From: a phage
Direction: 5' to 3' (one strand)
Sequence record: OZ335962.1
DNA length: 64,000 bases
Positions within the stretch are counted from its first letter, which is position 1. The number at the start of each line of letters is the position of its first letter. Shown one piece after another: positions 2,571 through 61,423 of the stretch. Under the pieces are notes generated by a model. That model did no database searches. It worked only from the letters and a program-made list of their open reading frames with translations, and was not told the DNA's origin. Made by a program: the position numbers and the translations under genes.

Positions 2571-5267
2571 TCAGCCAAACAGGAAGTCTAACGAAGCTTT
2601 TTCCTCATAGTCCATACCTGCCGATTCACACATGCCCGCAAGAGGTTTAACAAACGATTTTTGGAACAAAGTTGAGTAGTCAATCCAAGACAGTACGTCA
2701 GAACGAATTTCTTTTGGAAGTTCTGTGCCTGATGGCCAAGCAATGCACTTGTCACCAAATGGATTTCCTTCACGTAATGGAAGAACCATTACCTTATTTC
2801 CATCCAAAATTGGAGCTACACCTAAACCACTAACAGCTCGACGATAAGTTAGCACACCACGAATATGGAACGGACATTTAAATCCTGGCCAACCTTTATC
2901 ATCATATTTCGCTATATCGTTCGCAGTTTTTACTTCAGCAATAACTTTATAGTCAAGTTGACGATATTCTTTCTCAAAGTTCTTGTAGTATTCTTGGACA
3001 GACTCTTCACCTTCCTGAAGAATACGACGAATACTTTCTTCGAGGGCTTCTTGTACTGCTTTTGGTGTTGAACTCTGCTGAGTTTCCATACCCATGATTT
3101 TTAGATGCGGTTCAGCAAATCGCTTATCTTCCATATCATAAACGTTCAGAGCATAACGTTTTTTCGCTTTCCAAAATCCACCAACACCCTTTGAACCAAG
3201 TGGAGGGCAAGAAATAGCTTCACGGTCCATATGCATCAGATGCTCGCGGTTATTCATATAATCACATAACTCACGATATGCAACATCAATCATAGGTTCC
3301 ATCTTTTTCTTACCAAACTGATTCATGAATTCAACTAAATCATTTTGTTCTTTAAAGCGGTCAAGACCTACTTTTTCAATAACTTTATCTACACAAACAT
3401 ATACCGAATCAGTATCACCTGCTGCGATGAAATCTTCACCATTAGTTCCACACACTTTATTTAGATACTCATTAATTTTACGAGCAATCCATTGAATACC
3501 AACTTGACCGAAAATTGTGATAGCAGTAGCATTTCGCAAATCATAGTAACGGAAATGAATATTACCAAGAGCACCATAAAGACTGTTAATAAGAATTTTA
3601 CGGTTCAGCTGATTTGTGTTAGCAAGCGTAGCTGCTTTTTCACATTCTTCGATCAGACTATTAAGAACAGATTCGGTGTAATTCGATAATTTGTTTAAGA
3701 AATCATCATTGAACTTAACATATCGTTCAACTTCTGGTTTAGTTGAACAAGACCCTGCACCTTTCATAATAATCTTTTTAATAGCTTCGGCATTCATTTC
3801 TTCCGCGAACATTTTCTTTTTCCAATCTTTACGCTGGAAAAATACTTTAGCGATTTCCTTTGGAATGATACCTTCTTGGTGCTTATCATACATCCATCCA
3901 TTCGGAGAGCAAGAATATTCATCACTTGGCTTAGGAGCTGTTCCTGCGATATATTCATGAATTGGATGAACTTTAAACTGCCCACGAATAGTCTCAGGAC
4001 TAATGTTAACCTGACGAATAATGCTAGGATACAGAGACGTCAAGTCAAAACTCATAATGTATCTACGGGCAATCGGTTTAGGTTCAAACACAAATGCACC
4101 TGGAAAACTCTGTTTAACGTGCGAACCTTGTTGAGGAATAACCTTATGTTCACCTTTCAGTGAGTTAAAAATAATAGCATCCCAAGTTTTAATAGGACTC
4201 ATTACACCAGAAAAAGGCATTTTAGCGTAATAAGACATACTTAAAACTAGATCGATAAACCCACGAATTTTATCAATTGCTTGAACTGATTCTACGTCAA
4301 TGATGTTATAACTAATGTATCGTTGATGATTAGTCTCACGAAGTTTATTAATAGGACCATCATATGGTAATTTACCTTTTTTGGTTTCATGTTGAGCAAC
4401 TGATTCCAAAGAGAACGATGGCAAATTAGTAAATGCGAATTTCTTGTACAAATCTAAATAATCAAGAATAGATACGCCATCAATAGAATAAATTTCTTTG
4501 CTACCGTACATATTTTGAATTAGTTTAGATTTTACTCGACCGATTGGAGAGAAGCGTTTCATACTACGTTCGCCTAGAACCATTTTAACACGGTTCATGA
4601 TATACGGAACGTCAAATCCCTCAATATTCCAACCAGTAAAAATAGCGGGTCGTTTCTGTTCCCAGAGATTAATATATTCCATGAGCATATCACGCTCATT
4701 ATCAAATGGCATATAAATTACTCGGTCAAGAATTTCTTGAGGAACTTCATCACCACCTTCGCAGTCAAGCTTAGCAGCTAACTTTGCATCCCATTTTGAT
4801 ACTGAACCGTACATTGAATTCAATAAATCAAAGACGTAAAAACGATCGTCAATTGAATCATAATGAGTGATAGCATCAATTTCATATTCTGCTTTCATTG
4901 GGTCAGGAAATTTATCGCCAGTAACCTCAATGTCACAGTTAGCCACACGAACAAATTTTCGGTCATAAACAATTTCTGAACCATATGTATCACTGATATA
5001 AGCGAGTTTAAAATCGTTCATACCGAGAGCTTCGAGACCGATGTCTTCCATTCGCTTCATCCAGTCTCGCGCATCTTTCATTGATGGAAATTTTTGAGGA
5101 GCGCAATTTTTACCATAAATGTCTTTGTATTTTGACTCTTCCTTACAATGCCTAAACATAGTCGGAAGATATTCTACTTCACGGGTACGTTCCTTTCCAT
5201 TTTCATCAATATAACGCTCAACAATATTATTTCCGACTGTTTCGATAGAGATATAAAATTCTTTCAT
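2571..5267 (-). CDS. 43: DNA polymerase (family B)
   Basis: 898 aa, near-identical to recalled T4 gp43 (MKEFYISIETVGNNIVERY...; exonuclease and polymerase motifs including YGDTDS). Confidence 0.97.
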   Translation of the reverse strand: MKEFYISIETVGNNIVERYIDENGKERTREVEYLPTMFRHCKEESKYKDIYGKNCAPQKFPSMKDARDWMKRMEDIGLEALGMNDFKLAYISDTYGSEIVYDRKFVRVANCDIEVTGDKFPDPMKAEYEIDAITHYDSIDDRFYVFDLLNSMYGSVSKWDAKLAAKLDCEGGDEVPQEILDRVIYMPFDNERDMLMEYINLWEQKRPAIFTGWNIEGFDVPYIMNRVKMVLGERSMKRFSPIGRVKSKLIQNMYGSKEIYSIDGVSILDYLDLYKKFAFTNLPSFSLESVAQHETKKGKLPYDGPINKLRETNHQRYISYNIIDVESVQAIDKIRGFIDLVLSMSYYAKMPFSGVMSPIKTWDAIIFNSLKGEHKVIPQQGSHVKQSFPGAFVFEPKPIARRYIMSFDLTSLYPSIIRQVNISPETIRGQFKVHPIHEYIAGTAPKPSDEYSCSPNGWMYDKHQEGIIPKEIAKVFFQRKDWKKKMFAEEMNAEAIKKIIMKGAGSCSTKPEVERYVKFNDDFLNKLSNYTESVLNSLIEECEKAATLANTNQLNRKILINSLYGALGNIHFRYYDLRNATAITIFGQVGIQWIARKINEYLNKVCGTNGEDFIAAGDTDSVYVCVDKVIEKVGLDRFKEQNDLVEFMNQFGKKKMEPMIDVAYRELCDYMNNREHLMHMDREAISCPPLGSKGVGGFWKAKKRYALNVYDMEDKRFAEPHLKIMGMETQQSSTPKAVQEALEESIRRILQEGEESVQEYYKNFEKEYRQLDYKVIAEVKTANDIAKYDDKGWPGFKCPFHIRGVLTYRRAVSGLGVAPILDGNKVMVLPLREGNPFGDKCIAWPSGTELPKEIRSDVLSWIDYSTLFQKSFVKPLAGMCESAGMDYEEKASLDFLFG

Positions 5268-7291: not shown

Positions 7292-7978
7292 TTAAAAATC
7301 GTGGGTAGAATCAGCTTCAAGAGCTACTACATAATTCGCATGTTCACCTTCAAATTTAGCAGCACCTTGTTTACCTTTTGCCCAGAGCAGAAGTTTATAA
7401 TTTCCTGGTTGCATTTTCATATTTGCCATATTGATAATGAAATTAAATGTATTTTCACCATCATAATCACCAAGAGTCAAAGAATATTTAACACGGGTCA
7501 AAGCAGAATCTTCTACTTTGTTAAAACCGTTAATTACGATTTTACCTTCTTTTACTGTGATAGCAATTGTATCAATCTGCAGACCACGAGATACACGCAA
7601 CAGCTGTTGAAGGTCTTCAGCTTTAATTTCGGTAACAACAGATGCTACCGGGAATGGAATTGGTTTATTAGGAGCAACTACTGTACTTGGATCGGCTGCT
7701 GGCCAAAAAATTGTTGAACGAGCATCAGCAATTTTAATATTTCCATCTTCTGACTGGGAAATTTCTGCATCGTCATTAACTAGGGACAGAATACCGAGAA
7801 AACCGTTCAAATCGTAAATTGCTACATCAAAATCAATAGTGTCAGAAATATTTGCTTCTGCATAAGTTGTACCATTAACTGCGCGAGTCATAATAAATTG
7901 ACCAGATTTAAGCATAATACCAGAGTTAATAGTAGCGAAATTTTTAAGCAGAGCAGTAGTATCTTTAGACAGTTTCAT
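7292..7978 (-). CDS. 45: sliding clamp processivity factor
   Basis: 228 aa, matches recalled T4 gp45 sequence. Confidence 0.95.
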   Translation of the reverse strand: MKLSKDTTALLKNFATINSGIMLKSGQFIMTRAVNGTTYAEANISDTIDFDVAIYDLNGFLGILSLVNDDAEISQSEDGNIKIADARSTIFWPAADPSTVVAPNKPIPFPVASVVTEIKAEDLQQLLRVSRGLQIDTIAITVKEGKIVINGFNKVEDSALTRVKYSLTLGDYDGENTFNFIINMANMKMQPGNYKLLLWAKGKQGAAKFEGEHANYVVALEADSTHDF

Positions 7979-39287: not shown

Positions 39288-39761
39288 TTATTTGAATGAT
39301 TTGACGTACTGAATAGAGCCTTTGCTATTCACGAAAGCGATTTTACCATTTTTGTTATACATGGTAGCAGTACGCTGATAGCCATAAGTTTGCTTACCAG
39401 ATTGATAACCAACTAGTGCGAAATTATCTTCACCCATTTTATTCTGCTTAGCGCGGATACGTTCATGACCGTGCGCCATAAGAACCTTAGCATCACCAGT
39501 TGCAATGGATCTACGAGTTTTTTCATCTTCAACTGTATTAACAAAGTCGTCAAATGAATCAAATTTAGCATGAGATTTATTATACAGTTTTCCATCTACT
39601 GCATAATTATATCCCTGTACATCCATCTCAACTTCTGTACCATCATCTAATACAGCAGTGATTTTTTGACCTTTTTTAAATTTCAAAAGATCAGTAAAAG
39701 ATTCAGCAATAATTTGAGAATTAATAGCTGCTTCAGTGATAAATTCTTGATATGTTTTCAT
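39288..39761 (-). CDS. internal protein (capsid-targeted, CTS-bearing)
   Basis: 157 aa beginning MKTYQEFITEA, the capsid targeting sequence consensus of T4 internal proteins; adjacent to denV and e like the T4 ipII/ipIII locus. Confidence 0.7.
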   Translation of the reverse strand: MKTYQEFITEAAINSQIIAESFTDLLKFKKGQKITAVLDDGTEVEMDVQGYNYAVDGKLYNKSHAKFDSFDDFVNTVEDEKTRRSIATGDAKVLMAHGHERIRAKQNKMGEDNFALVGYQSGKQTYGYQRTATMYNKNGKIAFVNSKGSIQYVKSFK

Positions 39762-40776: not shown

Positions 40777-41232
40777 TTAAAAGAGGCTGTTCATTATTCG
40801 GTAAAGTGAAGGACCCATCACATATTGCCACTGAGTACGAGGAATAAGAGCAAAAGCATCCATCTCTGGAATCATAACGCCATCTTTATTTTCAAAATAA
40901 GACTCGCAATGGCAATTTCTAAACATCTCATGCTCTACTGGAATCGTATAATAAAATAACTGTAAGTCTTTATTACTAGAATATTTAAATACACCTAAGT
41001 CTTCTAGAAGGTCTGGATTATAATCGATAAAACCAGTCTCTTCTGAGCATTCTCTTTTTGCAGCTTCCAGTGCATTCAAATCAGAACTTTCTACACGCCC
41101 CTTTGGAATATCCCAGCGATGTGCCATCATTCCAGGTTTACGAGAACCGGTAACTCGTCCCATAAATAAATCTTTATCTTCTGTCATAAAGATAATACCA
41201 GCTGATAATGTTTTCATTTTAATTTCCTGCAT
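40777..41232 (-). CDS. nudE: Nudix hydrolase
   Basis: 151 aa as in T4 NudE; Nudix box GRVESSDLNALEAAKRECSEETG. Confidence 0.85.
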   Translation of the reverse strand: MQEIKMKTLSAGIIFMTEDKDLFMGRVTGSRKPGMMAHRWDIPKGRVESSDLNALEAAKRECSEETGFIDYNPDLLEDLGVFKYSSNKDLQLFYYTIPVEHEMFRNCHCESYFENKDGVMIPEMDAFALIPRTQWQYVMGPSLYRIMNSLF

Positions 41233-41702
41233 TCAGTGATAAAATTATTTAAATTTTGAGCATATTTCTTTTCATCAAAAATCTTTTGTTGTCTGCGCAT
41301 CCGCCATGGCATTTCAATGAACATGTACCATATTCCTGATAATATTGATGCTGTAAAAATATTAACAAGTATAATTAAAAGAATCCAATCTCCCGTTCTG
41401 CCTACTGGACTTTCTCCAAAGAAGCAAAATACAAATGATGTCACAGGAAAACTAATAATATACCACAGAATCATAATCTTATCTGTGAACCAATCAGCGT
41501 TCGTTAATTTAGCGCGACCGTTTCGAATACACACGAATTTATCATCTGTCGCAGTAGATGGCTTAGCTGCTTGATATCCCATTCTAAACTCCCTAATTAA
41601 TCGTTTCTTTGTATCTTCAGAACAGCCGCTCCAGTCAACTCTATCAACTGAAATGCCATCGTCCCCATCATCTAAATCATACCAGCGAGTTTTTAAAATC
41701 AT
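41214..41702 (-). CDS. hypothetical membrane protein (complete copy)
   Basis: 162 aa with C-terminal transmembrane helices; its first 84 codons are exactly duplicated upstream. Confidence 0.6.
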   Translation of the reverse strand: MILKTRWYDLDDGDDGISVDRVDWSGCSEDTKKRLIREFRMGYQAAKPSTATDDKFVCIRNGRAKLTNADWFTDKIMILWYIISFPVTSFVFCFFGESPVGRTGDWILLIILVNIFTASILSGIWYMFIEMPWRMRRQQKIFDEKKYAQNLNNFITECRKLK

Positions 41703-41964
41703 TTAATTTATAATATACCACAGAATCATAATCTTATCTGTGAACCAATCAGCGTTCGTTAATTTAGCGCGACCGTTTCGAATACACACGAATTTATCAT
41801 CTGTCGCAGTAGATGGCTTAGCTGCTTGATATCCCATTCTAAACTCCCTAATTAATCGTTTCTTTGTATCTTCAGAACAGCCGCTCCAGTCAACTCTATC
41901 AACTGAAATGCCATCGTCCCCATCATCTAAATCATACCAGCGAGTTTTTAAAATCATTTAATTT
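41455..41964. repeat. exact 255-bp tandem duplication (2 copies)
   Basis: Copy 1 41455-41709 and copy 2 41710-41964 appear base-for-base identical by direct reading; in frame, creating a truncated gene copy. Confidence 0.85.
41703..41957 (-). CDS. truncated duplicate of the downstream gene (N-terminal 84 aa)
   Basis: Encodes the identical first 83 residues of ORF 41214-41702 then N-stop; product of a 255-bp tandem duplication. Confidence 0.5.
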   Translation of the reverse strand: MILKTRWYDLDDGDDGISVDRVDWSGCSEDTKKRLIREFRMGYQAAKPSTATDDKFVCIRNGRAKLTNADWFTDKIMILWYIIN

Positions 41965-42316: not shown

Positions 42317-42690
42317 CGTGATTCCTTAACAAATTTCATAATTTCATCAAATTCATACATATCTAGCTTAAGCTGGTGTTCCTTTTTAATCTTTTTACAC
42401 TGAGCTTTCCAATCACGTACACGTTTACGATAATGTCTTCCTTGATACCAGTATCCTACCCAATTTACAGGTACTAATAAAAGCGGAACTACCAATGGAA
42501 GAATTAGTGTTGCTCCAAATATTACACCAGATTCAATATCAGTCATAACGTCTATAACCATTCCAGCAATCACCAAAATCACAAATGATACAGCTACCAC
42601 AGGACCTATTAACACATCAGTAGAAATTAGCTGACGCTTTGGTTCATACTTCACAGGTTTACTTGGAAGGTATAGTGATGGCTTTGACAT
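42298..42690 (-). CDS. hypothetical membrane protein
   Basis: Likely start ATG 42690 with AAGGAA RBS; two transmembrane helices. Confidence 0.5.
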   Translation of the reverse strand: MSKPSLYLPSKPVKYEPKRQLISTDVLIGPVVAVSFVILVIAGMVIDVMTDIESGVIFGATLILPLVVPLLLVPVNWVGYWYQGRHYRKRVRDWKAQCKKIKKEHQLKLDMYEFDEIMKFVKESRCKSQN

Positions 42691-43273
42691 ATTCTCTACA
42701 TTCCTTAACAAATTTTTCTAATAATAAATCACTTTCAAAATTGGGATTTTCTACGAATTTATCAAAAAGATCATCAACAATAGTTAAGATATTCTTTTTA
42801 CTAAGAATACGCTTATTTTCATATTTTGTTTCAGAGTCAACTATAAGAGTAAAGAAATATTTCTTTCCCTGAAATTTTACCGTAGTATCAATATAAAATA
42901 AATTTGATTTTTGTAAATTACGTTTAAACCATGCATCACTTAAACTATAAACGCCAAGATAATCATAATCGTCGTTTAAATAACAAACCGTCCATTCAGG
43001 AGAAATGAAATCAGTAAATTCAACATCAAAATCACACGTCAATGAATGAATTGATTCAATACTGTTAATGAGTATTCCAGGACGTATTAAAGACTTTTTA
43101 CCTCTAGAAAATCTTCCGGAAAGGCTTTCATCAGTTTCATATGAAGACCCCCAATAGTAATTACGTCCTTCTGCCATGCGTTTAAGAGCATTTAGTAATT
43201 GGTCTGGAACATCAACCTGTCTTTGGAACTCTTCAAACATTGAATTGAAATCACTTTGCATTTTCATTTTCAT
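42659..43273 (-). CDS. hypothetical protein
   Basis: 204-aa ORF with GGAG RBS. Confidence 0.55.
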   Translation of the reverse strand: MKMKMQSDFNSMFEEFQRQVDVPDQLLNALKRMAEGRNYYWGSSYETDESLSGRFSRGKKSLIRPGILINSIESIHSLTCDFDVEFTDFISPEWTVCYLNDDYDYLGVYSLSDAWFKRNLQKSNLFYIDTTVKFQGKKYFFTLIVDSETKYENKRILSKKNILTIVDDLFDKFVENPNFESDLLLEKFVKECREYVKAITIPSK

Positions 43274-43292
43274 TCCTATTTACTCCAAGTAT

Positions 43293-43310
43293 AAGGGGCC
43301 GAAGCCCCTT
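43293..43310 (-). terminator. terminator-like hairpin
   Basis: AAGGGGC-CGAA-GCCCCTT between ORFs 43315-43908 and 42659-43273; weak U-tract. Confidence 0.45.
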
Positions 43311-43314
43311 ATCA

Positions 43315-43908
43315 TTATTTCAGAGAATTAATGTATTCCTGAACATCGGCAGAGGTAGTTTCAACCCCAGAAATATTACCATTAAAGGTTTCAACTCGAG
43401 CAAGGGTATCTTCAATATCAACCTTAGTCAGTGCTGCAATTTCAACTACATCATCGGCAGTACTAATTCCAAGGGCATTTGCCGCACGAGTTTCACGGAT
43501 ATATTCCAATTTAACTGCAAGCTCTTGACGAGCATCATCTAACTCAACTACTTTCTTGGCGATTTCAATTCGCATTTCAGCATAACCGTCAGCCTTAGTA
43601 GTCAACTGCTCAGCTGTTCGACGATATAGTAAACCGAGTTTAGCATGCATTGTTACATCTTGGCCTTCGGAAAGAAGTTTACGAATTTCACGCTCTTTTG
43701 ATTCGGCCTGTCGATTCTTTTCGATAACAAGTTCACGAATACGTTTTTCTTCGTTAATAGATTTAACAGAAGCAGTTTTTAGATCTTTAATTTTATCAAG
43801 TAGTTTTGCTGCTGCAGCAGTATACTGTTCTTCGACAGATAGATTTTTAGCCATAGCAGAACCAAGTTTAGTGCGAATAAACTCAACAATTTTCTTCAGT
43901 GTGTTCAT
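43315..43908 (-). CDS. hypothetical coiled-coil protein
   Basis: 197 aa, alanine/glutamate-rich helical sequence. Confidence 0.5.
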
Positions 43909-44012: not shown

Positions 44013-44276
44013 TTATTTCATATTATTGAAATATTCTTCTGCGATTTCGTCGTTATCGTGGTAAACTTTAGAAGACAGTTTAACATAACCTTCTGCTGTG
44101 AACATATTAATCACAACCTTTACAGTATACCACTGTCCGTCTTCATTACCCATTACTGCGTAAGTTTCAAACATCGGATGGTCAGGACCGATAACTTTAA
44201 TATCATTCACTGTACGACCGAAATCTTCTGAAACGCATTTCATAAAGAAGTTGAACAGTTCGCCGTAATTATCCAT
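44013..44276 (-). CDS. hypothetical protein
   Basis: Likely start ATG 44276 (MDNYGELFNFF...) with GGAGAA RBS downstream of an early-type promoter. Confidence 0.5.
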   Translation of the reverse strand: MDNYGELFNFFMKCVSEDFGRTVNDIKVIGPDHPMFETYAVMGNEDGQWYTVKVVINMFTAEGYVKLSSKVYHDNDEIAEEYFNNMK

Positions 44277-44320
44277 TTCATTCTCCAAGTTGTTTTTCTG
44301 TATCAGTAGTTGATAGTTGT

Positions 44321-44350
44321 ATAGTACCATGGAAGAACAGGGATGTAAAC
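44321..44350 (-). promoter_or_regulatory. early-type sigma70 promoter
   Basis: GTTTAC -35, 18 bp, TGGTACTAT; upstream of ORF 44013-44276. Confidence 0.6.
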
Positions 44351-44483
44351 CGTTTTGTGAAAAAATTTTTAAAAAGTTTTATGGAATTCTGGGGCAGGGA
44401 GGGGCAATTAAAAGGTAGGATAATATATTATAAAGGGTATAAACTAAATGATGCCTAGAGAGGCCCGGAAAGGCCTAGATACC

Positions 44484-44514
44484 AAAAAGCCCCAACCTTT
44501 TGGTCGGGGTTAAG
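44484..44514 (-). terminator. intrinsic terminator downstream of the ip-like gene
   Basis: CCCCGACC/GGTTGGGG stem followed by TTTTTGG on the minus strand. Confidence 0.6.
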
Positions 44515-44518
44515 AATG

Positions 44519-44992
44519 TTATTTGATTTGTTTAGCAGACCAAATGCGGTCTTTAATAATTTTTTGAATGTCTTCAACATACTCAAGAGAGTGAACGTGT
44601 GGATTATCTTTGAAACTATAAGCACGGGCTAACTTTTGGCCTTCGGTTTTGATTACTAAAAGCTCTTTAAGGATAGCTTCATATTTAGCGATAATTCCTT
44701 TAACGATATTTTTTTCTTGTGCCGCTTTAGGATCTGCTTTAGGAGCAGGTTTACCCGAAGGCTTTGCAAAAGCAGCTCCAGTAGCAACTAAACTTTTCCA
44801 GGCCATACTAACTGCATTTCCCGTAAATCCTTCTGCTTTCATGTCGCGAGCAAATTGGAATCGTGATTCGTCAGAAGCATCTTTATAGGAATATTTACCC
44901 GCTGCAATGGCTGCTTTTGCGACAGCTTGAATTTCGGTGCTAGATGCTTCATTTAACACCGCTTCATTTAAAAATTGAGCATATGATTTCAT
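44519..44992 (-). CDS. internal-protein-like (CTS-bearing) protein
   Basis: 157 aa beginning MKSYAQFLNEA (CTS-like); flanked by near-identical terminator hairpins and preceded by a TATAAATA late promoter. Confidence 0.6.
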   Translation of the reverse strand: MKSYAQFLNEAVLNEASSTEIQAVAKAAIAAGKYSYKDASDESRFQFARDMKAEGFTGNAVSMAWKSLVATGAAFAKPSGKPAPKADPKAAQEKNIVKGIIAKYEAILKELLVIKTEGQKLARAYSFKDNPHVHSLEYVEDIQKIIKDRIWSAKQIK

Positions 44993-45032
44993 CTTATTTC
45001 CTGTTTTAATTCGTGGATTTAATATACTACTA

Positions 45033-45040
45033 TATTTATA
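45033..45040 (-). promoter_or_regulatory. late promoter (TATAAATA)
   Basis: Minus-strand TATAAATA 41 bp upstream of the ip-like gene start at 44992. Confidence 0.5.
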
Positions 45041-45042
45041 CT

Positions 45043-45073
45043 AAAAAGCCCCAACCTTTCGGTCGGGGCTAAG
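45043..45073 (-). terminator. intrinsic terminator upstream of the ip-like cassette
   Basis: Near-identical copy of the 44484-44514 hairpin, followed by CTTTTTAG. Confidence 0.6.
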
Positions 45074-45075
45074 CC

Positions 45076-45376
45076 TTGCGGCAACCTTGTCGGGGTTCCA
45101 CCTGCTAAGGCAAGTGTTTGTACGAAACGCCGGGATTCGAACCCGGTTATTAAGTAGTTGACGCTACTCAATATTTTTAAAAGGCCATATCTCGACCATA
45201 TCCGAACGTTCCGTCAAAAACGCTACTCGGCTTACGGCAAAGATATTTCCTCGAATCGATAATTCGGTGCGCCGTTTCAGCTGTGATAGTAAAGAACCAG
45301 AACACAGTAAAACTGTGGGAGGAACTATACTCCAGGGAACATCAGTCCGACGACTTACCGGTAACGACCCGGTTTC
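45076..45376 (-). ncRNA. candidate stable RNA / tRNA-like element
   Basis: Non-coding 300 bp containing a perfect T-arm (CCGGG-TTCGAAT-CCCGG) and a possible acceptor pairing CGGAACG/CGTTTCG but no canonical cloverleaf; T4 encodes stable RNAs of unknown function near its tRNA cluster. Confidence 0.3.
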
Positions 45377-45727
45377 TTAATATTCTTTTAAAGTATCAAT
45401 CTGTTCACGACGTTTACGCCATAAATCAATTGCTTCATACGCAGATTCAGCATTTCTAATTAGTCGGCATTTGTGTAAAGACTTATGATTTTGATATTGT
45501 GTAGATAACGGAATTTTATCTAAAAGGTCTTTACGTTCAAAGTATTCATAACCATCTAAGCCAAATGAACGATTTTTAAGAAATTGCCAATGACCGTATT
45601 CGTTTTCGACATAAACATAATCTGCGTGCTGATAAAGCAAATTAATTACACGTTCAGAAATAACAGTGTCATTATGATTAAAATAGAATGTTAAATCATG
45701 AACTACTAAATAAACATTACCTTTCAT
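45377..45727 (-). CDS. hypothetical protein
   Basis: 116-aa ORF immediately downstream of tRNA-Arg. Confidence 0.45.
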   Translation of the reverse strand: MKGNVYLVVHDLTFYFNHNDTVISERVINLLYQHADYVYVENEYGHWQFLKNRSFGLDGYEYFERKDLLDKIPLSTQYQNHKSLHKCRLIRNAESAYEAIDLWRKRREQIDTLKEY

Positions 45728-45743: not shown

Positions 45744-45819
45744 TGGTCGAGGCAGTAGGGATCGAACCTACGACCCAGGACTTAGAAGGTCCTTGCTCTT
45801 CCTTCTGAGCTATGCCTCG
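45744..45819 (-). tRNA. tRNA-Arg (anticodon UCU)
   Basis: 76-nt cloverleaf folded by eye: anticodon loop CTTCTAA, T-loop TTCGATC, CCA encoded. Confidence 0.9.
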
Positions 45820-45823
45820 GATT

Positions 45824-45898
45824 TGGCGGACGTGATAGGATTCGAACCTATAACCAATCGCTTAACAGGCGATCGCTCTGCCATTGAGCTACACATCC
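45824..45898 (-). tRNA. tRNA-Asn (anticodon GUU)
   Basis: 75-nt cloverleaf: acceptor GGATGTG/CACGTCC, anticodon stem ATCGC/GCGAT, loop CTGTTAA, T-loop TTCGAAT, CCA encoded. Confidence 0.8.
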
Positions 45899-45902
45899 AA
45901 AT

Positions 45903-45989
45903 TGGTGGGGAGTGATGGAGTCGAACCACCCGAGTCGCAATGACAATGGATTTACAGTCCACACCGCTACCTCTACGGGATAACTCCCC
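45903..45989 (-). tRNA. tRNA-Tyr (anticodon GUA), class II
   Basis: 87 nt: acceptor GGGGAGT/ACTCCCC, anticodon loop CTGTAAA, long variable arm, T-loop TTCGACT, CCA encoded. Confidence 0.75.
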
Positions 45990-45998
45990 AAATTAATT

Positions 45999-46073
45999 TG
46001 GTGGCCCTGGGTGGAATTGAACCACCATCTGGCGATTATGAGTCGCTTGCTTGAACCTTCCAGCTACAGGGCC
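45999..46073 (-). tRNA. tRNA-Ile (anticodon CAU, AUA-reading type)
   Basis: Matches recalled T4 tRNA-Ile (GGCCCTGTAGCTGGAAGG...CTCATAATCG...). Confidence 0.9.
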
Positions 46074-46074
46074 T

Positions 46075-46150
46075 TGGTGCTGATTGACGGAATCGAACCG
46101 CCGACCTTCTCATTACAAGTGAGTTGCTCTACCTACTGAGCTAAATCAGC
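46075..46150 (-). tRNA. tRNA-Thr (anticodon UGU)
   Basis: Matches recalled T4 tRNA-Thr (GCTGATTTAGCTCAGTAGG...). Confidence 0.92.
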
Positions 46151-46155
46151 AAAAC

Positions 46156-46245
46156 TGGCGGAGGCGATAGGATTTGAACCTATGAGTCGCCGGAGCGACT
46201 GCCGGTTTTCAAGACCGGTGCATTAAACCACTCTGCCACGCCTCC
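46156..46245 (-). tRNA. tRNA-Ser (anticodon UGA), class II
   Basis: 90 nt with long variable arm; anticodon loop CTTGAAA. Confidence 0.88.
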
Positions 46246-46247
46246 AG

Positions 46248-46321
46248 TCTCCATACAAGGATTTGAACCTTGGACCTCCTGATCCCAAATCAGGCGCTCT
46301 ACCAAACTGAGCTACACGGAG
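46248..46321 (-). tRNA. tRNA-Pro (anticodon UGG)
   Basis: Matches recalled T4 tRNA-Pro; anticodon loop TTTGGGA; 3' CCA not encoded. Confidence 0.88.
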
Positions 46322-46331
46322 TAAATTAAAT

Positions 46332-46405
<74 letters not shown>

Positions 46406-46410
46406 AAATT

Positions 46411-46497
46411 TGGTGCGAGAAGTGGGACTCGAACCCACAAGGAAATCATTCCGCAGCATTTTAAGTGCTGTGCCTTTACCAATTTGACCATTCTCGC
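46411..46497 (-). tRNA. tRNA-Leu (anticodon UAA), class II
   Basis: Matches recalled T4 tRNA-Leu (GCGAGAATGGTCAAATTGG...). Confidence 0.92.
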
Positions 46498-46498
46498 G

Positions 46499-46571
46499 CT
46501 GGGAATAAAGGACTCGAACCTTTGCATCCTGGAATCAAAATCCAGTGCCTTACCAACTTGGCTAATTCCCA
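46499..46571 (-). tRNA. tRNA-Gln (anticodon UUG)
   Basis: Cloverleaf with anticodon loop TTTTGAT; abuts tRNA-Leu as a dimeric precursor; CCA not fully encoded. Confidence 0.88.
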
Positions 46572-48111: not shown

Positions 48112-48345
48112 TTATTTTTTACGAAAAATTGATTTATTTTCTGCTGCCCATTTTTCAATAACTGCAGCAGGACCAGTAACAACAATTTTATCACCGTAAT
48201 CTTCTGCGGCGAGTTGACCGAAATTATCTAATGCATCACGAAGAACTCCATGAGGCATTTCACCCATTTTATCTTTCTTGCCGGTGTAAATAAACTCAAC
48301 TTTTACATCAGAAGATTCAGCGATAAATTCTTGATAAGTTTTCAT
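48112..48345 (-). CDS. internal protein (CTS-bearing), ipI-locus gene A
   Basis: About 77 aa from MKTYQEFIAESS (CTS consensus); own early-type promoter upstream; position next to 57B as T4 ipI. Confidence 0.65.
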   Translation of the reverse strand: MKTYQEFIAESSDVKVEFIYTGKKDKMGEMPHGVLRDALDNFGQLAAEDYGDKIVVTGPAAVIEKWAAENKSIFRKK

Positions 48346-48424: not shown

Positions 48425-48682
48425 TTATTTTAAATCTTCTAATCGTTTCTTCATCTTAGAACCATTTTTAGCAATTTCTCCTGCATCGGAGCATAATGCT
48501 AAAAGTGCTTTAACTTTCGTTTGGTCTCCTTTAAAAGATGAAGGATCTACTGCAGCAGCAAGTTCTTTAATACGAGAGAAAAGACGCTCAGCTTCAGCTA
48601 AAGCCATTCCAAGCTTTACTTCCATACCGTGGGAAGATTCAGTGATAGTAGTTTTTGCAGCAAACTCTTTGAAAGTTTTCAT
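48425..48682 (-). CDS. internal-protein-like (CTS-like), ipI-locus gene B
   Basis: 85 aa beginning MKTFKEFAAKT; AGGAAA RBS; own early-type promoter upstream. Confidence 0.6.
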   Translation of the reverse strand: MKTFKEFAAKTTITESSHGMEVKLGMALAEAERLFSRIKELAAAVDPSSFKGDQTKVKALLALCSDAGEIAKNGSKMKKRLEDLK

Positions 48683-61388: not shown

Positions 61389-61413
61389 GGGAGCCCATAG
61401 GCTCCCTTTTTTC
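61389..61413 (+). terminator. intrinsic terminator downstream of gene 8
   Basis: GGGAGCC-CATA-GGCTCCC followed by TTTTTTCTTT on the plus strand. Confidence 0.7.
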
Positions 61414-61415
61414 TT

Positions 61416-61423
61416 TATAAATA
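61416..61423 (+). promoter_or_regulatory. late promoter (TATAAATA) of gene 9
   Basis: Exact TATAAATA 25 bp upstream of gene 9 ATG. Confidence 0.7.

Follow-up and report, generated by a model that had tools for sequence, protein, structure and literature searches.

A candidate capsid-targeted internal protein in a polymorphic, probable late-gene cassette between duplicated terminator hairpins of a T4-like phage

The 64,000-nucleotide stretch of phage DNA analysed here (sequence record OZ335962.1; hereafter the window) is a Tequatrovirus segment with 95-98% identity to hundreds of T4-like genomes. In the gap between its homologues of the T4 genes e.8 and rnaC lies a 559-bp unit that comprises a late-promoter motif, a predicted ribosome-binding site, an open reading frame (ORF) for a 157-amino acid (aa) protein (44519-44992, minus strand) and a terminator hairpin, and that is missing from T4 and T2. 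The protein starts with MKSYAQFLNEA, belongs to the phrog_2280 family and is a candidate capsid-targeted internal protein. We consider it probable that the unit is a self-contained late-gene cassette, carrying a candidate injected anti-defence internal protein and lost or gained by recombination between its hairpins.

The cassette's own terminator is a copy of the terminator of rnaC, so that the unit is bracketed by 36-nt direct repeats. The rnaC-side copy (45038-45073, minus strand) contains a stem-loop at 45070-45047 with a 10-bp stem and a GAAA loop followed by U5 (-20.3 kcal/mol, z -4.2), and corresponds to the hairpin after rnaC in T4 through homology to positions 7333-7360 of the compared T4 segment. 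The e.8-side copy (44479-44514, minus strand), the predicted cassette terminator, forms a stem-loop at 44509-44490 with an 8-bp stem and an AAAA loop, again followed by U5 (-15.1 kcal/mol, z -3.1). The first-pass annotation of this DNA had described near-identical hairpin terminators that bracket the ORF as direct repeats 559 bp apart, and this description holds: the two copies agree at 33 of 36 positions with a start-to-start spacing of 559, and they are the two best terminator-like sites on the gene strand within 12.5 kb. Such a repeat pair is expected by chance about 2e-9 times in the surrounding 4 kb and 4e-7 times in the whole window, on which basis a chance match was rejected, and no third copy was found in the window with up to 8 mismatches allowed.

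Also as annotated earlier, the T4 late-promoter consensus TATAAATA stands 41 nt before the ATG (45033-45040, minus strand). It starts 2 nt after the U-run of the hairpin. A Shine-Dalgarno sequence, AGGAA (44998-45002, minus strand), lies 5 nt before the start codon. The sequence following the hairpin, TTTTTAGTATAAATA, is without a -35/-10 pair, and a promoter search of the cassette leader found none of the sigma-70 type. The junction between U-run and late promoter, CTTTTTAGTATAAATA, is kept in 9 of 11 related Tequatrovirus loci. Elsewhere in the window, on the plus strand, another terminator hairpin joined to the same motif (GGGAGCCCATAGGCTCCC-TTTTTTCTT-TATAAATA) is found at 61407-61423, and an ORF that begins with MFIQEPK follows 24 nt downstream; terminator plus late promoter is therefore a general late-gene junction rather than a cassette-specific one, and such junctions are in themselves ordinary in T4-like genomes.

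The e.8-rnaC site is a small hyperplastic region with its junctions at terminator hairpins. In T4, the interval has no ORF and a single hairpin, and both T4 and T2 present a precise empty site, in which one hybrid hairpin has the 5' side of the rnaC-side copy and the 3' side of the e.8-side copy. On the gene strand T4 reads ...GCAACGGTTAG-CCCCGACCGAAAGGTTGGGG-CTTTTTGGTATCTAAGCC..., i.e., the rnaC-side 5' flank, stem and GAAA loop are joined to the e.8-side 3' flank, which is the exact product expected from a crossover within the 17-nt stretch AAAGGTTGGGGCTTTTT shared by the two copies. We assessed occupancy in 60 records drawn evenly from 688 matching phage records. Six of the 60, T4 and T2 among them, have an uninterrupted empty site, 20 have flanks that are split in two and together span about 780-800 nt, as a single cassette would give (checked in phage G28), and the remainder contain larger, diverged or different inserts. 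Two tandem cassettes, holding the 157-aa gene and a 187-aa paralogue, occur in Shigella phage Sfk20, in Bas37 (phage KarlGJung) and in several IMG/VR contigs; in the double-cassette phages there are three hairpins, and the last of these differs in its stem but has the same CTTTTTGGTATCTAGGCC flank. In four IMG/VR contigs, the same interval holds a 184-aa predicted membrane protein (MKLLKYLSW...) together with an ORF of 154, 157 or 205 aa bearing a capsid-targeting sequence (CTS). The 205-aa ORF, seen in two IMG/VR contigs, matches the phrog_2280 family only in its first ~16 residues (MKTYNEFLNESVLNEA), which suggests exchange downstream of the propeptide.

The repeats had been proposed to mark a polymorphic boundary across T-even genomes, and the empty site with its hybrid hairpin in T4 and T2, together with double or alternative cargo elsewhere, bears this out. 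The related proposal of cassette exchange as at the ip loci is supported by a polymorphism that ends in the hairpins, with the caveat that the flanking elements are a GC-rich intrinsic terminator and a late promoter and not the early-promoter stem-loops of those loci. We infer that homologous recombination between the hairpin copies would delete the unit precisely, that T4 and T2 would represent the deleted state, and that mixed infection could re-insert or swap the unit. Short patches of homology suffice for recombination in T4 (PMC2839356).

The layout extends to other genera. In Klebsiella phage KP1 (Jiaodavirus), the homologue likewise follows the tRNA/small-RNA block, and upstream of it stands GCCCCGTC-TTCG-GACGGGGC-TTTTTAGTATAAATA, where the stem differs from that of the window and the U-run and late-promoter junction CTTTTTAGTATAAATA is identical; the junction of T-run and AGTATAAATA is kept despite the different hairpin stem. 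In Yersinia phage fHe-Yen9-01 (Tegunavirus), two paralogues are adjacent; the first has TATAAATA at a distance of 38 nt upstream, and the second is followed by a strong terminator. The persistence of this layout across genera argues that late transcription and insulation are functional. Since the family is found at the same position in other genera, the gene is probably ancestral, and a deletion in T4 and T2 is a simpler and likelier account of their empty site than a recent insertion of the cassette elsewhere; the cassette as a recent foreign insertion was rejected on the same grounds.

Codons 1-15 of the ORF (44948-44992, minus strand) encode a capsid-targeting-like propeptide with two tandem L-x-E/A prohead-protease motifs, MKSYAQFLNE/AVLNE/AS (slashes mark putative cleavage sites). 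Amber-suppressor experiments on IPIII assigned targeting mainly to residues 4 and 7 and processing to residues 8 and 10, and gp21 is known to cleave after L/I-x-E (PMC9026906). The 157-aa product carries Y4, F7, L8 and E10 followed by Ala, matching the determinant positions of IPIII, so the CTS-like start reported earlier is upheld, and the anticipated gp21 cleavage motifs are present after it at L8-N9-E10/A11 and L13-N14-E15/A16-S17. For comparison, T4 IPII and IPIII start with MKTYQEFIAE/A and IPI with MKTFKEF...ITE/A. Across the family E15 is invariant, A16 and S17 are nearly so, and shorter homologues have the second site only. Homologues with as little as 27-44% identity retain the four determinants, as do those of other genera, and distant members of the family start with MLKFNEFLAEG, MINFSDFLNEG, MLEYSEFLKEL or MLQYNEFLKES. 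The DNA of the first ten codons differs from that of the ip genes at many positions, and this divergence, taken with the kept residues, indicates that the motif is held by selection on the peptide and not by recent exchange. Such an N-terminus is expected by chance in about 5e-7 per ORF, and a six-frame motif search of the window matched only the 157-aa ORF and two other candidate internal-protein ORFs. These sequence features support a capsid-targeting reading of the N-terminus.

Pairwise ratios of non-synonymous to synonymous substitution (dN/dS) of 0.05-0.12 against six homologues indicate strong purifying selection; the ORF is therefore real, and the possibility that it is spurious was rejected. 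The predicted mature form, of about 15.5-16 kDa with an isoelectric point (pI) of 9.5 and 20 lysines, resembles the mature T4 proteins IPI*, IPII* and IPIII*. An AlphaFold2 model (predicted local distance difference test score, pLDDT, 74) has a low-confidence or disordered propeptide, a three-helix domain (residues 18-71), a Lys/Pro-rich linker (76-87) and a long helical hairpin (88-154). A Pfam search gave no significant match for the product, its sole PHROG match is phrog_2280, annotated 'unknown function', and the PDB yielded neither a sequence relative in a profile search nor a fold relative. By tblastn, the gene is present in 512 phage records, 470 of them with the full length, and it is annotated 'hypothetical protein' in every phage record sampled; in UniRef, one entry, that of a homologue from a Klebsiella phage, bears the name 'Internal head protein'. 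When 1.84 billion representative proteins were searched with a profile, no more than 13 clusters matched, and those members that could be traced to a named source belong to T4-like phages infecting Escherichia, Shigella, Salmonella, Klebsiella and Yersinia; tblastn with the Klebsiella homologue placed the family also in phages of Serratia, Erwinia, Kosakonia and Enterobacter. In phage vB_EcoM-G28, a frameshift cuts the gene to 97 aa, at positions 3400-3693 of the compared segment, with the flanking hairpins and promoter intact, a state consistent with the gene being dispensable.

From these features, we propose that the protein would be made late in infection, that its N-terminal MKSYAQFLNE would dock it to the scaffolding core of the prohead, that gp21 would cut the propeptide after E10 and/or E15 (giving predicted N-termini at A11, AVLNEASSTEIQAVAK, or at A16, ASSTEIQAVAK), and that the basic, helical mature protein of roughly 15.5 kDa would stay with the head DNA and be injected along with it. 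By analogy with internal proteins of known target, neutralising a host defence at DNA entry would be its most likely job. Ip1, Ip2 and Ip3 each inhibit a distinct variant of GmrSD (PMC12373910), and Bas37_0260, an injected-type protein from the ipI locus of Bas37, is reported to inhibit McrBC, a type IV restriction system of E. coli K-12 (bioRxiv 10.1101/2025.11.20.689424); our best guess for the target would thus be a variant of a type IV restriction enzyme.

Genetic data exist for the orthologue in Bas37, bas37_0244, which is identical to the protein of the window at 155 of 157 residues. In HIDEN-SEQ transposon data, it was disrupted at 29 of 34 TA sites and classed as non-essential (bioRxiv 10.1101/2025.11.20.689424, Extended Data Table 7). 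The HIDEN-SEQ results for Bas37 used here cover four of six host comparisons. Many phages have a second cassette with the 187-aa paralogue, which in Bas37 (bas37_0243) and Sfk20 spans positions 3100-3663 and 1718-2281, respectively, of the compared segments; the paralogue belongs to the same PHROG and has the propeptide MKTYAEFLTE/A; this paralogue is absent from T4, T2 and the window. In Bas37 it was disrupted at 1 of 48 TA sites and classed as essential; on K-12 its mean reads were 0.2, and on the clinical isolates 0.0-0.7. Such a score is unexpected for a gene that T4, T2 and the window are without.

Several observations weigh against an injected anti-defence protein expressed from a late cassette. 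Outside the propeptide, the protein resembles no characterised Ip in sequence or fold, and its mature region gave no significant profile match to known Ip families (Pfam IPI_T4 PF11634 and DUF7412; PHROGs annotated as internal virion or head protein); T-even internal proteins are described as diverse apart from the conserved CTS (PMC3012670). The T4 ip genes have early-type promoters directly upstream, and the early-promoter elements GTTTACA...GATACTAT are present both there and at the ORFs of the window's ipI locus, but none is found at the 157-aa ORF. The motif TATAAATA is no more frequent on this strand than base composition predicts (8 observed, about 8 expected). Four of the eight sites lie 20-45 nt upstream of start codons, namely those of the ip gene at 39761, of the lysozyme gene e (two sites) and of the 157-aa ORF, and the weight of the motif comes from its position and its conservation in other genera, not from its frequency. 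Log2 fold changes for bas37_0244 were -0.11, -0.30, -0.14 and 0.00 in the four host comparisons, two of which are labelled CFE303 and CFE331, and none was significant; dispensability on K-12 with no change in fitness fits an accessory gene and points to no target defence. The essential score of bas37_0243, in turn, fits poorly with a purely accessory anti-defence family. Finally, we found no proteomic, transcriptomic or genetic datum that places the protein in virions or late in infection, and no peptides of the family are among the listed virion mass-spectrometry entries for the Klebsiella Jiaodaviruses VMC03/04, in which carriage of the gene was not checked. A literature search found no Tequatrovirus virion proteome covering the 157-aa gene (the fPS-2 paper has no proteome, and the fD1 paper has mass spectrometry on another phage only), and a search on the names RB32ORF132c/133c found nothing.

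The score of bas37_0243 also speaks for a different role, in which the protein is capsid-targeted and acts as an accessory of the prohead core or of DNA packing and ejection, serving head assembly or genome delivery. That paralogue, with the same kind of propeptide, tolerates almost no insertions and its reads are near nil; the family is found in several Tevenvirinae genera without a change of position, frequently in the form of two tandem paralogues, and is more conserved than typical Ip genes; the Lys/Pro-rich linker and long helical hairpin of the model would suit such a role, and no host-specific phenotype was seen for bas37_0244. We nevertheless regard this role as unlikely, as T4 and T2 are without both paralogues and their heads assemble normally, the orthologue of the 157-aa gene itself is dispensable, and frameshifted copies such as that of G28 exist in some genomes. 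Packaging could also be denied altogether, the protein then being a late, cytoplasmic accessory protein whose N-terminal likeness would be a recombination relic, acquired from ip genes through their 5' ends. The protein is not recorded in virions, and 5' gene ends with their ribosome-binding sites do belong to the recombining modules of promoter-early stem-loops (PeSLs; PMC2839356); however, a relic of this kind is hard to reconcile with first 30 nt that differ from those of ip genes at many positions while the four functional residues are kept, with a motif that survives at low identity and in other genera, which speaks for selection on the peptide rather than recent exchange, or with the near-invariance of the second L-x-E/A-S site at residues 13-17, and we judge this explanation improbable.

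A further alternative concerns the hairpins rather than the protein. They could be mere terminators of adjacent units, the indel having arisen by co-conversion with SegB homing or by illegitimate recombination. Ordinary late genes share the junction of terminator and late promoter, as at 61407-61423, homing endonuclease genes are present in the tRNA block of many relatives, and the last hairpin stem differs in the double-cassette phages. Against this, the agreement between the copies includes the unpaired flanks and most of the loop, which terminator function alone would not need, the T4 junction amounts to precisely one repeat unit whose crossover does not reach beyond AAAGGTTGGGGCTTTTT, and neither the cassette nor the window's tRNA block contains an endonuclease gene; we consider such an origin very unlikely. 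A self-contained cassette lost by hairpin recombination, with an injected anti-defence cargo, remains our favoured reading. A broader scheme is possible, which we offer tentatively: phrog_2280 may be a two-paralogue capsid-targeted family at a third ip locus, ranging from Tequatrovirus to Jiaodavirus, Tegunavirus and Winklervirus-like phages, in which the 157-aa type would be a dispensable injected factor and the 187-aa type indispensable in at least one phage. The family as a whole would then have a role unlike that of the GmrSD and McrBC inhibitors (e.g., against a K-12 defence, or in DNA packing or ejection), and terminator and late-promoter junctions would do for late genes of this kind what PeSLs do elsewhere, namely shuffle them.

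The first-pass annotation had listed three further CTS-bearing ORFs, and all three are present on the minus strand and match PHROGs that carry an annotation of internal virion protein or internal head protein. The ORF at 39288-39761 (MKTYQEFITE/A; DUF7412, phrog_3155, internal virion protein) adjoins denV and has TATAAATA 42 nt upstream. The other two lie at the ipI locus. That at 48112-48345 (MKTYQEFIAE/S, 77 aa, phrog_8111) is 97% identical to Bas37_0260, and that at 48425-48682 has an IPI-type CTS (MKTFKEFAAKTTITE/S; phrog_3499, internal head protein) and early-promoter stem-loop elements on its flanks; it is 99% identical to bas37_0261, annotated 'ipI', yet has no Pfam IPI_T4 match.

The gene strand is minus throughout the region, and the order is that of T4, i.e., vs.6, an ip gene, denV, e, nudE, e.2-e.8, the small RNAs and tRNAs, homologues of trna.2-4, two ip genes, 57B, 57A and gene 1. 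The variable site is flanked on one side by the e.8 homologue (phrog_2678; 44013-44330, minus strand) and on the other by the homologue of T4 rnaC, or species 1 RNA (about 45121-45259, minus strand), to which the T4 annotation was transferred via an ungapped alignment. rnaC is the last gene of the tRNA/small-RNA block, and the cassette sits after its terminator. The tRNA block (45744-46571) has 10 genes, with Asn and Tyr extra relative to T4, and is without the segB homing endonuclease gene. Between the rnaD-like region, whose central part has diverged from T4, and tRNA-Arg lies a 116-aa ORF (45377-45727; phrog_3355, function not assigned). An Rfam scan returned tRNAs only, with no match for rnaC or rnaD.

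Two observations concern the genes on the e.8 side of the cassette. In Bas37, bas37_0239 and bas37_0240, homologues of e.5 and e.6 (about 42659-43908 in the window), were strongly depleted in the first HIDEN-SEQ host comparison (log2 fold changes -3.6 and -6.5, adjusted p = 0), so that these genes just downstream of the cassette may be host-specific fitness or anti-defence genes. Further on, a 255-bp tandem direct duplication (41450-41704 and 41705-41959, 99% identical) covers the 5' half of an e.2-like membrane-protein gene (phrog_2203); the ORFs at 41214-41702 (162 aa) and 41703-41957 (84 aa) have their first ~83 residues in common. The duplication could be a recent event or an assembly artefact.

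The literature describes only two ip loci, and the 157-aa gene falls outside both. The four internal proteins with known targets, Ip1, Ip2, Ip3 and Bas37_0260, all inhibit type IV restriction enzymes, and they were recognised only by their packaging signal; about 500 sequenced T4-like phages, including many that are candidates for therapy, carry the phrog_2280 family, and nearly all copies are annotated "hypothetical". If the protein is packaged, the known set gains a widespread anti-defence candidate, open to testing by existing means such as Bas37 mutants and the ECOR and GmrSD collections; ip genes then occur beyond the two loci, and the site provides a clean natural example of a cassette lost when duplicated terminators recombine. 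Should packaging not occur, the rules for recognising the propeptide would need revision.

Like T4 IPI, IPII and IPIII, the 157-aa protein has a propeptide of the MKTYQEFIAE type (an aromatic residue at position 4, Phe-7, Leu/Ile-8 and Glu-10, then a small residue), would be a small basic protein in its mature form (pI about 9.5), is dispensable on laboratory hosts and varies in presence among close relatives. It differs from them in having no similarity beyond the propeptide and in having only a late-promoter motif and no early promoter; its packaging, processing and injection are predicted, and its gene lies at a third locus (e.8/rnaC) and not at ipI (57B side) or ipII/ipIII (denV/e side). 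Bas37_0260 is the closest parallel in kind, being a small ORF of the same phage lineage that was recognised only by its N-terminal packaging signal; the mature sequences are unrelated, the loci differ, and Bas37_0260 has a demonstrated phenotype whereas bas37_0244 showed none in the host comparisons described above.

Variable ORFs of T4-type phages are flanked by recombining promoter/terminator elements (PeSLs), and mini-circles are formed (PMC2839356, PMC4122927). As with the PeSLs of RB49/phi1, PST/T4 and nt-1/KVP40 and the PeSL-like elements of the two T-even ip loci (Arbiol 2010, Comeau 2014), a short element with a terminator stem-loop stands on either flank of a small ORF that is not essential, the endpoints of indels among close relatives fall within this element, and the cassette is transcriptionally insulated. 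In contrast to PeSLs, the stem-loop is joined to the late TATAAATA and not to a sigma-70-like, T4 early or MotA middle promoter, and only the stem-loop, not the promoter, is duplicated at the cassette. The cassette stem is moreover GC-rich (CCCCGACC/GGTTGGGG), whereas the elements associated with T-even internal proteins are described as weaker and AT-rich. The differences from known cases are thus the third site, a GC-rich terminator combined with a late promoter in which the hairpin alone is duplicated, and a family that is conserved across genera and often has two paralogues. The concept of CTS-bearing internal proteins and recombining cassettes is already established, and the gene described here is a previously unrecognised candidate at a new locus.

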